Below, piece after piece: positions 42,591 to 53,932 of a stretch of DNA of 62,266 bases. Source of the stretch: Minisyncoccota bacterium (GTDB taxonomy: Bacteria; Patescibacteriota; Minisyncoccia; UBA6257; XYB1-36-10); assembly GCA_041651415.1 (NCBI GenBank), contig JBAZJH010000004.1, positions 1 to 62,266 of the forward strand, written 5' to 3'. Numbering within the stretch: position 1 is the stretch's first letter; each line of letters starts with the position of its first letter. Below the pieces are notes generated by a model that had not been told where the DNA came from, did no database searches, and saw nothing but the letters and a program-made list of their open reading frames with translations. The translations under genes and the position numbers were made by a program.

Positions 42591-44840
42591 ATGAATAAAA
42601 ATAACTTGGCGGTTTTTTATGAATGGGGGGCAAAAGCGATAATTTTTGCGGCGCCGCTACTTTTTCTTTTTATAGATAAGGCGTCTTTCTTTCCATATGT
42701 AGCTCCGAGAGCTTTTATCTTCAGATTTTTAATAGAGATAGCTTTTGCTTTTGTGGTCGGGGGCTGGCTTTTAAAAGGGAAGTTAAAGCCGAAAATTTCT
42801 TTAATCAGTGCGGCGGTTTTGATTTTTTTAGTCGTTATCGGAGTGGCCGATTATTTTGGCGCGAATCCTGACCGGAGTTTTTGGTCAAGATTTGAAAGAA
42901 TGGATGGATATTTGAATTTAATTCATCTGGTTTTGTTTTTCTTGGCAGCGCGTTTTGCTTTAAAGAAAAGAAGCGATTGGTTTTGGTTTTTTAATGCGAC
43001 TCTTTTTGTCTCGGCGGCGGAGTTTTTATACGCTTTATTGCAAAAATTGGGGAAAATAGAATCCATAATCGGAGGGTTCCGCGCGGAAGGAACTTTCGGA
43101 AATCCGACATATCTCGCGGCGTTTGCGCTTTTCGCTTTCGGGATAGCGCTCGCGCTTTTAACAGAAAGCAAGGAATTTTGGAAAAAAATAGTTTTTTCAG
43201 GAATAGCTTTAATCAACTTGATTACGATATATATGTCGGCAACAAGAGGAGTTTTTGTGGCTTTATTTGCTGGATTTATTATTTTTACGGGAATTATTCT
43301 TTTTATAAAAACAGAAGGAAGAGGAATAAAAATTTTAAAGAAAGCGAGTTTGTGGGGACTCGCGATACTTTTAGCGCTGTCCGCTTTGATTTGGTTTTTT
43401 AGAGATTCAAGTTTTATTTCAGGAAATGAAACTTTAAGGAGATTAACTTCCATTTCTTTTTCTGACCGAACGACTGTTGGAAGATTTTTAGTTTGGAAAA
43501 TGGCGTTAGAAGGAGCGATGGAACGGCCGATTTTGGGATGGGGACAGGAAAATTTTGTGGATGTTTTCAATAAGTATTATGACCCGGCGCTTTATAACCA
43601 AGAGATGTGGTTTGATAGAGCGCATAATGTGGTGATGGATTGGTTCGTAGCCGGAGGAGTTTTAGGACTTTTATCTTATCTTTTTATTTTTGGCGCGGCC
43701 GGTTTTGTTATTCTTCGAGTAATTAAAGGAGAGAGAGAAGAAGAGAAAAAGATTTCAGGAGCGATTATTCTAACTCTTTTTATTTCTTATTTTGTCCAAA
43801 ATATTTTTGTTTTTGACAATATGGCGACTTACGTGATGTTTTTTTCGCTTCTTGCTTACGCGGATTTTTTAAAAAAGGAAACGGGCGGGAGTCCGGAGGC
43901 GGGAAATTCAGAAGGAAAAGACAGGAAATATTTAAGCTTATCGGCGGCAGCTGTTTTAATCGTCATCTTTTCAGCGGTTTCCTGGTTTATAAATTTCAAA
44001 CCTTATCTGCAAGCAAGAGCGATGATAAAATCGGTAGAGATGATGTATGAAAAAAAGACGGTAGGCGGAGAAGTTTTGGAAAGTTTTAAAAATATTTTGA
44101 ATTACAACACTTTCGGAAATGAGGAAATGGCGGAGCAGATGGGAAAAATAATAAATGAGATTTTAATGACTTCCAAGGGAAATATAATTCCGGAAGCGGA
44201 GAAAAAAGTTTTTATGGAAGAAACCATGAAAGAGATGAAAAAAGAGATTGAAAGAGACCCGAATAATTTAAGAATGAGATTGTTTATGGGAACGATTTAT
44301 ACCAGATTTGCGGATTTGGATAAAAGCTATTGGGAATTGGGGAACAACGAATTAAGAGAAGCTTTGAAGATATCGCCGAATAAACAGCAGATTTATATAG
44401 CTTTAGTGGAAAGTTATTTAAAGAGCGGAGATTATGAAAAAGCTTACAATATTGCAGAAAAGGCTTATGAACTTGATAAAAATTACAAAGTGACAAGAGG
44501 AACTTTGGCTTATACCGCGCTTATTGCCGGAAAAAATGAAAAAGTGGAGGAATTAGCGAGGGAAGGTTTGAGCCATGAATATTTGGCAAAACTGGGCGAT
44601 ATTTATATCGTTCTTAAGGATTTCAAAAAGGCAATAGAAATGTTTGAGGGGGCAGTGAGGGAACATCCGGGATTGCCGGAATATCGGGCGAAGCTGGCCG
44701 GACTTTATCTAAACCAGGGAAAAATAAAAGAAGCGGTGGAGCAGGCGAGGATGGCGGAAAAACTTGACCCGGCAAATTATGCGGAGGGAGTGAGGGTGTT
44801 TTTGGAAAATGTAAAAAAGTTGGGATACGAAATAGATTAG
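42591..44840 (+). CDS. O-antigen ligase-like (Wzy_C) membrane protein with C-terminal TPR repeats; candidate O-oligosaccharyltransferase
   Basis: About 12 TM segments; SFWSRFERMDG, GTFGNP, SATRG, RPILGWGQE, DRAHN motifs; helical TPR-like tail. Confidence 0.8.
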   Translation: MNKNNLAVFYEWGAKAIIFAAPLLFLFIDKASFFPYVAPRAFIFRFLIEIAFAFVVGGWLLKGKLKPKISLISAAVLIFLVVIGVADYFGANPDRSFWSRFERMDGYLNLIHLVLFFLAARFALKKRSDWFWFFNATLFVSAAEFLYALLQKLGKIESIIGGFRAEGTFGNPTYLAAFALFAFGIALALLTESKEFWKKIVFSGIALINLITIYMSATRGVFVALFAGFIIFTGIILFIKTEGRGIKILKKASLWGLAILLALSALIWFFRDSSFISGNETLRRLTSISFSDRTTVGRFLVWKMALEGAMERPILGWGQENFVDVFNKYYDPALYNQEMWFDRAHNVVMDWFVAGGVLGLLSYLFIFGAAGFVILRVIKGEREEEKKISGAIILTLFISYFVQNIFVFDNMATYVMFFSLLAYADFLKKETGGSPEAGNSEGKDRKYLSLSAAAVLIVIFSAVSWFINFKPYLQARAMIKSVEMMYEKKTVGGEVLESFKNILNYNTFGNEEMAEQMGKIINEILMTSKGNIIPEAEKKVFMEETMKEMKKEIERDPNNLRMRLFMGTIYTRFADLDKSYWELGNNELREALKISPNKQQIYIALVESYLKSGDYEKAYNIAEKAYELDKNYKVTRGTLAYTALIAGKNEKVEELAREGLSHEYLAKLGDIYIVLKDFKKAIEMFEGAVREHPGLPEYRAKLAGLYLNQGKIKEAVEQARMAEKLDPANYAEGVRVFLENVKKLGYEID

Positions 44841-44861: not shown

Positions 44862-44970
44862 AATTAAGAGAGCAGAAACAATCTCTCAGAAAGGGGCTAA
44901 TCGCCAGTTTTCTTCGAGAATGTTTCTGCTCTTTAATTTTTATGGGAAAAGCAGAGTGATAATTAAGTAA
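44862..44970 (+). ncRNA. Structured repeat unit 1 (stem-loop, GGGCTAATCGCCA loop, downstream GGGA..GTGATAA)
   Basis: 12-bp stem 44869-44880/44921-44932 plus inner TCTC/GAGA and AGAAA/TTTCT helices; shared motifs with three other copies. RNA function is inferred. Confidence 0.55.
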
Positions 44971-44997
44971 TTTTTTAAAACAGTTTTTAGACGGATT

Positions 44998-45125
44998 AAT
45001 AGAACAAAAAACAATCCTTCAAAACAGGGCTAATCACCAATTGTTTTTCAGGAATGTTTTTTGTTCTATTTAAAATTTTTAGGGAAGTAGAGAGTGATAA
45101 TAAGGTAATTGCCTAATCGGCAATT
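44998..45125 (+). ncRNA. Structured repeat unit 2
   Basis: Perfect 16-bp stem 44998-45013/45055-45070, inner TCCT/AGGA and AAAAC/GTTTT helices, loop GGGCTAATCACCA at 45027, GTGATAA at 45094, trailing hairpin AATTGCC-TAATC-GGCAATT. Confidence 0.55.
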
Positions 45126-45130
45126 TTTAA

Positions 45131-45282
45131 GAAAGAAGAAGAATAACCGGCAAATTTTTAAAAACAGGGCTAGTCACCAATTCCGCCATCCGCCAGTTTG
45201 CGGAGCGGACAGGCATTTTTTTAGCTATTATTCTTTTTTAATTTTCCATAGAGGAGTAAGAGTGATAATAATGCCCCGATAA
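45131..45282 (+). ncRNA. Structured repeat unit 3 (degenerate, with palindrome inserted in the loop)
   Basis: Loop GGGCTAGTCACCA at 45167, stem AAGAATAA/TTATTCTT, GAGGAG..GTGATAA at 45251-45268. Confidence 0.45.
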
Positions 45283-45351
45283 AATACGGGGTAAATATTT
45301 GCCTGCGGCAAATTTTATAAAAAATGAAATGATTGGTTTTTTAAAAATATT

Positions 45352-46797
45352 CTATTTTTTAAAAAGAGAGAAAAGAAGTTTTTCTTTGAAGAGGAGAAGA
45401 AGAGCGAGGTAGAAGAGAGAGGAAAGGAGGATGTTTGAGATAAGATGAAATTCAAAATAGAAAAGAGAAAAAGTGAGGGCGGACATAAGAAGAGAGGCGA
45501 GAATAATTTTTTTCAAATGAGGAAAGAGAGAAAAAGAAACGATTTTTTTGACGCGGAAAAGAAGGTAAGTATTAATGGCAAGTTGATTCAAAAGAGTAGC
45601 GAAAGCGCAGCCGGCGATGCCAAATTTGGGAATTAAGACGATATCTAAAATGATATTGCCGAGCATGCCGAAACAGGAGAAGGCAATAAGCTTTTTTTGT
45701 TCGTTTAGCGCAAAAACGGCGTTACCGATAATAATGGAAGGGAAGATTATAAAAATAGTAAGAGAAAGAATGGCAAAGCTTAAACCGGAAGCAAGATAAG
45801 CGGGACCGTAGAGAAGGCGGATAATATTTTCGCTTAAAATAAAACCGCCAAAAGAAATTGGAAGAGCGAGGGCAAGAACAGCCGAGATGGATTTTTCAAA
45901 AACTTTTTTGAATTCGCCGTTTTTATTTTCGGAAATTCTAGACATCATCGGAAAAAGACTGGCGGCAAAAACCGAAGGCAAAAGATAAAGAAGCTGAATG
46001 GGTTTTTCGGCGGCGGCGAAAAGGCCGGTAGCTTCGGCTCCGAGCATCCAACTGATAATAACGATATCGGTGTTAATCATAACCGCTCCCATAATGGACA
46101 TAACGCTAAAAGGAAGAGAAAGAGAGAGAACTCTTTTAATATCGGAAAAGTTTATTTTTTTAAGAAAAAGAGGAAAAGTTTTTCGGACGGCGAAAATCAT
46201 AAGGATGGAACCGGAGAGGGAGCCCAAGGCATAGCCCCAGGCGAGAGAAAAGCTGTTTTTAAAAGAAAAAAGGAGAAGAAAGCCGAGAGCGGCAATCATC
46301 AGATTGGTAAAAATATTCACCGAAGATTCGATTTCCATTTTTTCAGCGGCGCGAGTCAAAGAAGAACCGAAATCGCGAACAGAATCAAAAGCAAAAATAA
46401 GAACAGCAATAAAAATAAGTCCGCGCGCTTCTTCAAGTGGAGAAAGATAAGAAGAAAAAAGAAAGGCAAGAACAATAAGAAGGGCGGTGAAAAAGAATTT
46501 TACGAAAAAGCCGGCGGAAAGAAGAGAAAAGTTTTTAGTTCCCTCGCGAGAAAGTTCTCTTGTCGTAAAAGCATTCAGGCCGAGGTCGGAAAAAATGGAA
46601 AGAAAAGCGGCGAGGGAAAGAGCGTAGGAAAAGGCGCCCCAACTGCCAGCGCCCAAGACTCTTGCGGCATAAACAATGAGAGCGGTTCTAATCAAGCGGC
46701 CGAGAACTTGACCCAAAAGAAGCCAAAAAGTGTTTTTGAGGATAGTTTCTTTTGGCGAGCCGTTTTTAAACAGGCGAGCAGAAATTTTTTTAAGCAT
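45352..46797 (-). CDS. wzx: Wzx-type flippase (polysaccharide biosynthesis protein)
   Basis: KNTFWLLLGQ, ARVLGA, FSDLGL, NTDIVIISW...GLFAAA, LIPKFGIAG motifs; about 12-14 TM. Confidence 0.85.
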   Translation of the reverse strand: MLKKISARLFKNGSPKETILKNTFWLLLGQVLGRLIRTALIVYAARVLGAGSWGAFSYALSLAAFLSIFSDLGLNAFTTRELSREGTKNFSLLSAGFFVKFFFTALLIVLAFLFSSYLSPLEEARGLIFIAVLIFAFDSVRDFGSSLTRAAEKMEIESSVNIFTNLMIAALGFLLLFSFKNSFSLAWGYALGSLSGSILMIFAVRKTFPLFLKKINFSDIKRVLSLSLPFSVMSIMGAVMINTDIVIISWMLGAEATGLFAAAEKPIQLLYLLPSVFAASLFPMMSRISENKNGEFKKVFEKSISAVLALALPISFGGFILSENIIRLLYGPAYLASGLSFAILSLTIFIIFPSIIIGNAVFALNEQKKLIAFSCFGMLGNIILDIVLIPKFGIAGCAFATLLNQLAINTYLLFRVKKIVSFSLFPHLKKIILASLLMSALTFSLFYFEFHLISNILLSSLFYLALLLLFKEKLLFSLFKK

Positions 46798-53263: not shown

Positions 53264-53806
53264 ATGAAAAAAATGGCAATAACAATTTTAGCGGCGGTGC
53301 TTTTAGCGGGAGCGGGAATAATGATTCTCGGCTTTGTTTTGGCGCAAAAAGAAGAATACAGGAAAGCCGAAGTTATATTTAAAACGGAAAAAGGAGAAGC
53401 GAAATTTTTGGCGGAAGTGGCGGATAATACTTTTAAAAGAACGAGAGGATTATCAGGAAAGGAAAATTTAGGAGAAAAAGAAGGAATGCTTTTTGTTTAT
53501 AGCATAGCGGGAAAACCTGGTTTTTGGATGAAAGATATGAATTTTGCGATAGATATTGTTTGGATAAAAGGAGAAGAGGTGGTGGGAGTGACAAAAGAGG
53601 TGAAACCAGAGAGTTATAAAGAAGGAAAAGTTTTTTATCCACCAACTAAGAAAGTTGGCGAGACAGGTCCGCCAGTATCAGAAAAAGTTGGCGAGACAGG
53701 TCTGTCGGAAGCAGTTGATAAGATTTTAGAAATAAAAGCTGGAGAAGCGGAAAAGAATAATATAAAGGAAGGAGATAAAGTAGAAGTTGTTTTTGGCAAC
53801 TTCTAA
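53264..53806 (+). CDS. DUF192 family protein with an in-frame 21-codon palindromic insertion
   Basis: AEVAD..FKRTRGLS, GMLFVY, FWMKDMNFAIDIVWI, ILEIKAG motifs. Confidence 0.85.
   Translation: MKKMAITILAAVLLAGAGIMILGFVLAQKEEYRKAEVIFKTEKGEAKFLAEVADNTFKRTRGLSGKENLGEKEGMLFVYSIAGKPGFWMKDMNFAIDIVWIKGEEVVGVTKEVKPESYKEGKVFYPPTKKVGETGPPVSEKVGETGLSEAVDKILEIKAGEAEKNNIKEGDKVEVVFGNF
53638..53700. repeat. Tandem pair of TCC(A/G)CCA...TGGCGAGACAGG elements (30 + 33 bp) inside DUF192
   Basis: AAAGTTGGCGAGACAGGTC occurs at 53651 and 53684; removing 53638-53700 restores VFYLSEAVDKILEI. Confidence 0.8.
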
Positions 53807-53932
53807 TTGCCGACAAATCTTCGAAAAAAGGGCTAATCGCCAACCTACCTAACGGCAGGCAGGAATTTTTTCAGAATTGTCGGCAGTTTTTAAATAATTT
53901 CTTTGTGGGAAGATAAAGTGGTAATAAGATGA
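53805..53932 (+). ncRNA. Structured repeat unit 4 (with CCTACCTAACGGCAGGCAGG inserted in the loop)
   Basis: 12-bp stem 53805-53816/53877-53888, A-A mismatch, TCT/AGA helix, TC/TC internal loop, GGGCTAATCGCCA at 53830, GGGA..GTGGTAA at 53907-53924. Confidence 0.55.

Follow-up and report, generated by a model that had tools for sequence, protein, structure and literature searches.

A family of hairpin repeats with a conserved cap behind genes of a Minisyncoccota bacterium, apparently a new kind of REP-like element

We analyzed a stretch of 62,266 nucleotides (nt) of DNA, here called the window (contig JBAZJH010000004.1 of GenBank assembly GCA_041651415.1, forward strand), from an uncultured Minisyncoccota bacterium whose 741-kb genome (G000) is divided among 10 contigs (C1, C2 and so on), the window being contig C4. 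The element studied here is a long hairpin with a conserved loop, found at two places in the window. Three tandem units lie between a gene for an O-antigen-ligase/TPR protein (42591-44840) and a convergent gene on the - strand (45352-46797), while a fourth, solitary unit overlaps the TAA stop codon of a DUF192 gene (53264-53806). On balance we favor the reading that the tandem cluster and the solo copy belong to a lineage-restricted, multi-copy and modular family of hairpin repeats that resembles repetitive extragenic palindromes and bacterial interspersed mosaic elements (REP/BIME) or Correia elements.

The loop motif GGGCTARTCRCCA occurs four times in the window, always on the + strand, where 0.08 occurrences are expected by chance (Table 1). 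Units 1, 2 and 4 form 20-25-bp hairpins with folding energies of -35.6, -37.0 and -35.1 kcal/mol and z-scores of -4.7, -4.9 and -3.0, respectively, and they share one layout consisting of an outer stem, an A/A mismatch, a helix of 3-4 bp, a UC/UC internal loop, a 5-bp A/U helix and the conserved loop. Unit 3 is degenerate, its pairing being limited to a nested GC hairpin and the base of the stem. The reverse strands of the units fold equally well, as palindromes should. A T-rich spacer comes 3' of each unit, then a purine tract and the sequence GTG(A/G)TAAT(A/T)A; the purine tract and this sequence are referred to below as the box. A preliminary description of the window had proposed four copies with one shared architecture and differing, complementary stems, the third copy being degenerate, and the motif count, the folds and the z-scores bear this out. 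It had also placed the copies at or just after stop codons, with a conserved GTG(A/G)TAA motif 3' of the stem: the first hairpin of a locus indeed begins at -5 to +56 nt relative to the stop codon, the gene being co-oriented, and the purine-rich motif is present after all four units.

Table 1. Hairpin units, boxes and small hairpins in the window. Positions are those of the window; bit scores are those of covariance model R1 (see text).
Feature	Position	Strand	Details
Unit 1 hairpin, subtype A	44862..44938	+	Starts 22 nt past the stop codon of the O-antigen-ligase/TPR gene; loop GGGCTAATCGCCA at 44894-44906; 78.5 bits
Box 1	44944..44965	+	Purine tract GGGAAAAGCAGA, then GTGATAATTA; GTG(A/G)TAA at 44956; conserved at the orthologous site in the sister species
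Unit 2 hairpin, subtype B	44996..45072	+	Loop GGGCTAATCACCA at 45027-45039; 80.9 bits
Box 2	45082..45103	+	GGGAAGTAGAGA, then GTGATAATAA; GTG(A/G)TAA at 45094
Small hairpin H2	45107..45125	+	AATTGCC-TAATC-GGCAATT, then a T run; terminator-like; pentaloop equals the UAAUC of the cap
Unit 3, degenerate/chimeric hairpin	45136..45238	+	5' arm subtype-C-like, 3' arm subtype D; loop GGGCTAGTCACCA at 45167-45179; nested GC hairpin 45182-45209
Box 3	45250..45271	+	AGAGGAGTAAGA, then GTGATAATAA; GTG(A/G)TAA at 45262
Two small repeated hairpins	45274..45313	+	CCCCG-ATAAAATA-CGGGG (45274-45291); ATTTGCC-TGC-GGCAAAT (45297-45313)
Unit 4 hairpin, subtype C	53805..53888	+	Loop motif at 53830-53842; nested hairpin 53843-53863; 42.7 bits
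Box 4	53906..53927	+	TGGGAAGATAAA, then GTGGTAATAA; GTG(A/G)TAA at 53918

The window copies are members of a family that is dispersed over the genome. G000 contains 32 exact and five one-mismatch copies of the loop motif on the + strand, and the single match on the reverse strand is degenerate and without arms. A covariance model (R1, from alignment A1) built from 21 insert-free G000 copies detects 33 hairpins on the + strand, every minus-strand match being a lower-scoring antisense echo of the same palindrome. Five further motif-bearing copies, of which unit 3 of the window is one, are degenerate or chimeric and escape R1, and the family total comes to about 38. The stems fall into at least five subtypes (A-E). 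Among the 21 insert-free copies, 96.4% of the stem cells are paired and both sides have changed in 16 of 19 stem pairs; this level of pairing and covariation was reached in 0 of 500 shuffles, and slid controls were about 50% paired. Stem covariation, which the preliminary description had noted among the window copies, is therefore a property of the family genome-wide.

The invariant part of the module is its apex, namely the A-run/T-run helix and the loop ACA-GGGCTARTCRCCA-(A)TCR, to which the UC/UC internal loop can be added in subtypes A-C. A loop with R=G forms GGC-UAAUC-GCC. In some copies the loop CCA is directly followed by an inserted small GC-rich hairpin, which in one subtype contains another hairpin in turn. 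We observed such small hairpins (CCGCC-AAAG-GCGG, CCTGCCTGCCGGTAGGCAGG) directly 3' of the loop CCA in units 3 and 4 of the window as well as at C1:10773-10807 and C1:31704-31725; the insert of unit 3 is shared with the copy at C2:177878, and the doubly nested inserts of one subtype resemble a "Russian doll." Modules stand in tandem, one to three at a time, and are then followed by a separate purine-rich GTGATAATAA box and by small terminator-like hairpins.

The genes upstream of the hairpins are unrelated housekeeping genes (L25, GlyRS, TatD, RuvA, TsaE, PolA, UDG, FolD, DnaJ, PheT, L11, and EF-P), and in the window they are the O-antigen-ligase/TPR and DUF192 genes. In a census of the intergenic regions of at least 30 nt in G000, the repeat occupies 12 of 152 regions between two + strand genes, 10 of 78 regions between a + and a following - strand gene, 2 of 89 between a - and a following + strand gene, and 0 of 106 between two - strand genes. 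Occupancy is thus 22/230 behind an upstream + gene vs. 2/195 behind an upstream - gene, and 22 of the 24 occupied regions lie downstream of a co-oriented gene. The modules are located in the 3' untranslated region (UTR) or the intercistronic space of co-oriented genes, usually at the stop codon or within about 60 nt of it. No copy was found in G000 on the minus strand behind roughly 300 minus-strand genes, which are real genes, as a random sample includes ProRS, D-Ala-D-Ala ligase, and glycosyltransferases. On the + strand, the skew of G over C at third codon positions (GC3 skew) does not change sign between + and - genes in any of C1-C5, and it is reversed in C6-C7. Wherever the repeat is present, the + strand is thus the G-rich one, and presumably it is the leading strand. 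It follows from the skew and from the census that the orientation of the repeat is linked to the chromosomal strand as well as to the upstream gene, two ties that are inseparable in G000.

Some further observations concern the two strands. The GC3 skew on the + strand amounts to +0.25 to +0.48 in C1-C5 (window positions 10000-40000 are an example), and all five large contigs share this polarity. The approximately 300 genes on the C-rich strand include long runs (C3, C2:0-100 kb, and C1:220-298 kb), and their proteins look rich in Ser, Phe, and Leu. A variant copy with the loop CCGCGAATCGCGA (C2:153077-153141) is positioned upstream of a + gene in a region that follows a - gene, and it is conserved at the orthologous locus (L056) of the sister species described below.

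The strict polarity fits a possible but rather unlikely alternative, in which the repeat is a strand-specific DNA element with no role as RNA: its hairpin would extrude where the G-rich strand, as the lagging-strand template, is single-stranded, and its cap would be the recognition or nicking site of a putative structure-specific enzyme that copies the cap into other hairpins. All 38 G000 copies are found on the G-rich strand, with none behind the numerous real genes of the other strand, and on contig 1 of the related genome G175, 14 of 15 copies are on one strand, two of them in antisense to the genes around them. The strong preference for the 3' side of co-oriented genes that is seen within the G-rich strand (the 22/230 vs. 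2/195 of the census) is not, however, predicted by a process at the DNA level alone, and 28 of the 33 copies inspected in the related genus g45 are co-oriented with neighboring genes, the other five being antisense.

The sister species Candidatus Paceibacterota STF2_126 (G001), whose genes are 80-85% identical to those of G000 at the DNA level, has seven hairpins detectable with R1. Its orthologue of the window locus carries three hairpins at the same positions, all of other subtypes. Boxes 1 and 2 and their flanks are present in G000 and align well in G001; hairpin 1 is of subtype A in G000 and B/E-like with a decayed loop in G001, and hairpin 2 is of subtype B in G000 and has a subtype D interior in G001 on the same stem base, AGAACAA/TTGTTCT. 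The chimeric unit 3 of G000 is absent from the sister species, where a different, decayed hairpin without a box takes its place. Behind the L25 gene there is a subtype-D hairpin in G000 and a subtype-C hairpin in G001, and the latter is 98.6% identical to unit 4 of the window, which is at a non-orthologous locus, while the flanking genes are 82-85% identical. Presence and absence also vary: at C1:118346 G000 lacks the hairpin that is found at the orthologous site in G001, and the two hairpins behind the UDG gene in G000 (C2:153827) have no counterpart in G001. At least three copies (window unit 3, C2:177878, and G001 L061) are chimeras of a C-type 5' arm and a D-type 3' arm. Copies of one subtype have a core in common, and the extensions on its two sides differ from copy to copy, each pair being inverted complements and not direct repeats; the shared core of subtype B, for example, ends in AAAAAC...GTTTTT and is flanked by CC/GG, AGCC/GGCT, or AGAACA/TGTTCT.

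These comparisons show that turnover between the sister species is rapid and that modules pass from locus to locus by copying or exchange of DNA. The swaps, the chimeras and the inverted-complement flanks fit either recurrent gene conversion that begins at the loop or older palindromes whose tips have received the cap by insertion. An exchange of this kind, by gene conversion or by insertion into existing hairpin tips and with crossovers often at the conserved loop, would explain the subtypes, the chimeras, and the swapped modules of the sister species. The same turnover does not fit a slowly evolving cis-regulatory RNA. Several of these features speak for the DNA-level element introduced above as well: crossovers at the loop that give rise to chimeras, small GC hairpins nested directly 3' of the loop CCA, and copy-specific flanks that are inverted complements, as expected for insertion at the center of an existing palindrome.

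Sampling of the lineage is thin, with one sister at 82% protein identity, one relative at 60%, and otherwise identical re-assemblies. The protein search returned just these, the 60% relative being without the element, and thus offered no strain-level empty sites; a metagenome scan with the upstream protein added one distant relative only. The gene upstream of unit 4 has no orthologue in G001. Its orthologue in genome G004 is followed by a plain small hairpin, and G004 is too distant to serve as an empty site.

Two covariance models were built for the wider search, since RNAalifold could not fold a combined alignment of two lineages (register shifts): R1 was applied to 300 genomes of the order, and R2, built for the g45-lineage relatives, to 400 genomes of the class, about 700 in total. 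R1 detects the family in G000 and G001 only, with weaker matches in genus g45 and in one g24 genome, which belong to another family, f21. R2 finds nine copies in G051, about 20 in G175, 4-5 in G203, and one in G285, and no additional carriers among the 400 genomes of the class; other genera of both families are without the repeat. The g45 unit can be written GGTTCGGAATATTGTT-TC-AAAAACA-CGCTAATCGCTAT-MG-TTTTTT-TC-AACAAYATTCCGAACC. It shares with the G000 unit the A5/U5 helix, the UC/UC internal loop, and the GC-UAAUC-GC / GCUAAUCGC tip, and its stems are quite different, although they also covary (11 pairs changed on both sides). The 33 g45 copies inspected come from four genomes, and some stand at orthologous sites in three species, e.g., between rpmJ and rpsM. 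This patchy distribution suggests horizontal spread or repeated loss. A scan of genome contigs with a degenerate pattern gave almost only chance matches. As to a phage vector, 30 pattern matches in IMG/VR were all due to chance, and neither model matches there, one coding region excepted.

According to the preliminary description, the loop pairs with the box to form a pseudoknot, which would define a noncoding RNA class such as a 3'-end protective pseudoknot, a riboswitch-like sensor, or a small ribozyme. We paired each loop with its own box (28 pairs) and compared the result with every other box. The complementarity does exist: 24 of the 28 hairpin-box pairs can form 5-6 bp of AUCRC(C):(G)GUGAU. 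It is no better than chance, as cognate pairs match at 5.18 of 6 positions and non-cognate pairs at 5.20, and shuffling both sequences yields a Watson-Crick match of 5 bp or more in 34% of cases, shuffling the box alone in 50%. Nor do loop and box covary; one compensatory G-C case at C2:177878 is offset by an A-C mismatch at C8:766. The box is moreover separable from the hairpin. Tandem hairpins share a single box at C1:25475/25544, C2:105247/105348, and C2:153884/153993, so that there are hairpins without a box of their own, and boxes also stand behind a different long-hairpin family that lacks the AUCAC loop (C1:11057 and C2:174249) and behind an IS200-type end hairpin (C2:187315). None of the 33 g45 copies inspected has a box, and these relatives keep the cap. 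For these three reasons (no covariation, chance-level complementarity, a separable box) the pseudoknot is not supported, and pairing with the box is not part of the mechanism.

What stands of the proposed RNA class is a conserved, covarying stem-loop that is co-oriented with its upstream gene and absent from Rfam; a discrete class built around a pseudoknot does not. The argument that G-U pairs in place of A-C mismatches point to a + strand RNA fails in the stems, where we counted 24 G-U vs. 17 A-C combinations, and this lack of a G-U excess is also in keeping with the DNA-level alternative. No Rfam family matches the window at gathering thresholds, as the preliminary description had supposed, and even a relaxed scan of the window with Rfam 15 (E<=10) gave only generic hairpin matches far below threshold, with no ribozyme or riboswitch among them. 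A complementary 9-10-mer that could act as a trans RNA partner of the loop was not found in any rRNA, tRNA, or intergenic site of the genome. We therefore regard as very unlikely a self-contained functional RNA whose loop forms an H-type pseudoknot with the GTGAT box and which acts as a protective knot, ligand sensor, or small self-cleaving ribozyme, even though the invariant loop and the co-orientation with genes would suit it and no Rfam family explains the element. Its 38 copies behind unrelated genes are unlike the distribution of a riboswitch, and the separable box, the swapped modules, the chimeras, and the patchy occurrence argue against sensor, ribozyme, and protective knot alike.

The box itself could be read as a Shine-Dalgarno (SD) site followed by a GTG mini-ORF (open reading frame) that the loop occludes. 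GGAGG-like purine tracts indeed precede the conserved GTG by 5-10 nt, and many of the frames stop after four codons (VIIR, VIIM, VIVM). The 3' end of the 16S rRNA, however, reads ...GCGTGGAACAATTAAAT (also given as ...GAAGTCGTAACAAGGCACGTGTAGCGGAAGCTGTGCGTGGAACAATTAAAT; gene near C1 17256-17330) and lacks a CCUCC anti-SD, and GGAG is found upstream of only about 12% of the long ORFs, so that an SD sequence would have no partner in this organism, which apparently starts translation without SD pairing. Six of 28 boxes have GCG, GGG, GGA, GTT, or GTA in place of the GTG, and the frames range from 4 to 30 codons, short frames being expected in AT-rich sequence. This reading is highly improbable, and we rejected it for want of an anti-SD.

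T-rich tracts follow directly after the stems of units 1, 3, and 4, and the small H2 hairpins are the only ones recognized in a scan with the intrinsic-terminator consensus. Read on the minus strand, the box forms the T-rich tail of these H2 hairpins, and part of its A-richness may belong to bidirectional terminators. The following observations were made around the boxes. Small hairpins of the H2 type, AATTG(C/T)C-TAATC-G(G/A)CAATT, lie just 3' of the box at 45107-45125 in the window and at C2:177993, C2:180041, and C5:31936. The pair of small hairpins after box 3 precedes the convergent gene of the window, and such pairs also follow the boxes at C2:180000, C2:135207, and C8:692. A second long-hairpin family with the apex AGAGAGCGCTCCAAGGCCGCTAGGCCGGTCTTACTCTC is present in G000 at C1:10892-10966, C2:174137-174217, C2:177696-177794, and C5:23104-23185, and a purine/GTGATAATAA box follows at two of these sites. 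At C2:187250-187330 a GTGATAATAA box directly adjoins a right-end hairpin of IS200 type (CCACGGCCGTAAGGCCGTGGAGTTTCATTTTTT), which suggests that hairpin elements of several kinds preferentially land at the T-run ahead of the box.

In the favored interpretation, that of a REP/BIME- or Correia-like repeat family, the module is a hairpin of 60-110 nt with a copy- or subtype-specific basal stem and a conserved cap, the latter made up of a second helix, the 2x2 UC/UC internal loop, the A5/U5 helix, and a loop predicted to present the mini-hairpin GC-UAAUC-GC. Transcribed together with the upstream gene, it would serve as a generic 3'-end structure, that is, as a terminator helper, a barrier to 3' exonucleases, or a processing site, and the conserved cap may be the docking site of a putative factor. 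Judging from its position behind genes, the hairpin probably helps to end or to protect transcripts.

Several points weigh against this interpretation. No transposase, nuclease, or recombinase is tied to the family. The two IS200-type Y1_Tnp genes of G000 are flanked by unrelated hairpins (the ends of the insertion sequence carry CCACGGCCGTAAGGCCGTGG), and Y1_Tnp is absent from G001, G051 (100% complete), G203, and G285, all of them carriers of the repeat; a cognate enzyme, which the DNA-level alternative would need as well, was not found. No direct-repeat target duplication is visible at the copies, and there is no clean pair of empty and filled sites with defined ends, so that mobility is deduced from turnover. 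The hairpins are AU-rich with large loops (13-60 nt) and go uncalled in a simple terminator scan. A functional RNA would also be compatible with a cap conserved between two family-level lineages and with hairpins that keep their positions in the sister species. The favored interpretation does not account for this conservation of the cap or for the strict polarity.

A more specific model would join some of these facts, although we think it quite unlikely to be correct. Here the cap is recognized by a putative structure-specific enzyme that copies it into pre-existing hairpin tips on the G-rich strand, which would make the repeat a hairpin-tip "homing" or gene-conversion element without a transposase of a known type. 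Such homing would explain the copy-specific palindromic stem bases around a shared core, the chimeras that break at the loop, the Russian-doll nesting, the 38:0 strand polarity, and the patchy distribution in two unrelated genera.

Whichever explanation applies, the amount of DNA involved is of interest. The ultra-small genomes of the candidate phyla radiation (CPR) are thought to be streamlined. One family of capped hairpins makes up about 0.5% of G000 DNA, and several other hairpin families take up further DNA. A third family, with a 13-bp stem and the loop TAGCCGTAGAAACCTTGCGCTAACGCGCAATGTTTCTACGG, was seen at C1:19183, 104987, 246793, 248334, 266957, and 285291 and at C2:7568; it is mostly in one orientation, on the + strand, even within regions of minus-strand genes. 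If the cap is read as RNA, it would represent a lineage-specific way of ending or protecting transcripts, which would matter in an organism apparently without SD pairing and with few classical terminators. If it is read as DNA, it would represent a transposase-free, strand-coupled spread of structured repeats. The family should be masked or modeled before "novel structured RNAs" are called in Paceibacteria, and it breaks assemblies. In run SRR8542065, a Logan contig has its end within the unit 1 loop (window position 44898, locus L206), a repeat-induced assembly break, and a 184.6-kb contig of ENA assembly ERZ27247363 spans the window locus and is identical to the window.

The family was compared with several known groups of structured repeats. 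TIGR-Tas stem-loop arrays have been described with CCA as "box C" (PMC12045711), and like the present repeat they combine CPR hosts, tandem stem-loops with variable stems, and short conserved loop motifs, here a loop ending in CCA. In contrast to such arrays, the copies are scattered over the genome downstream of housekeeping genes and form no array next to an effector gene, and the loop of 13-18 nt is invariant (a 13-mer in 32 copies), with no variable spacers of 8-12 nt. A search of the whole genome for the Nop domain (PF01798) gave no match, with positive controls. That the units are a guide array of the TIGR-Tas type is almost certainly wrong, and we rejected it on account of the missing Nop domain and the invariant loop. 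Integron attC sites, too, are structure-defined recombination sites with variable sequence, a conserved fold, and one orientation, but they conserve the stem base (R''/R' cores) and extrahelical bases and vary at the tip, the reverse of what is seen here, where there are also no cassette ORFs. The PATEs of IS200/IS605 resemble the family in being hairpin-based and oriented with one chromosomal strand, and IS200-type copies reside in the same genome; they differ in that the hairpin sequences are unrelated, there is no left-end/right-end pair, and Y1_Tnp shows no correlation with the repeat across genomes. We rejected mobilization by RAYT or IS200 on two grounds, the different hairpins and the lack of co-occurrence between Y1_Tnp and the repeat.

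Two groups come closer. The Correia (NEMIS) elements of Neisseria and the ERIC/IRU elements of enterobacteria are likewise repeats of about 100-150 nt that form long mRNA hairpins next to genes and are transcribed with them. Their hairpins are cut by RNase III or RNase E and affect termination and transcript stability. They have fixed terminal inverted repeats and a TA target duplication, whereas here the outer stem is variable, the loop is fixed, and direct duplication is lacking; nor do they show the strict confinement to one strand observed here. The REP/BIME (REPIN-RAYT) sequences of proteobacteria share with the family short multi-copy extragenic palindromes at gene 3' ends and between cistrons, mosaics with other small motifs, co-transcription with the upstream gene, and lineage-specific expansion. 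REPs are mRNA 3'-end stabilizers and termination aids. The present repeat differs from them in having no GTAG/GTGG-type foot, the stem feet being copy-specific and the hairpin tip conserved, in its tandem copies that are all direct and on the + strand and do not form inverted doublets (REPINs), in its longer stems of 20-25 bp, and in the lack of an associated RAYT. By these traits the family is a member neither of REP/BIME nor of the Correia elements, and it looks like a new kind of REP-like repeat rather than a new riboswitch or ribozyme.

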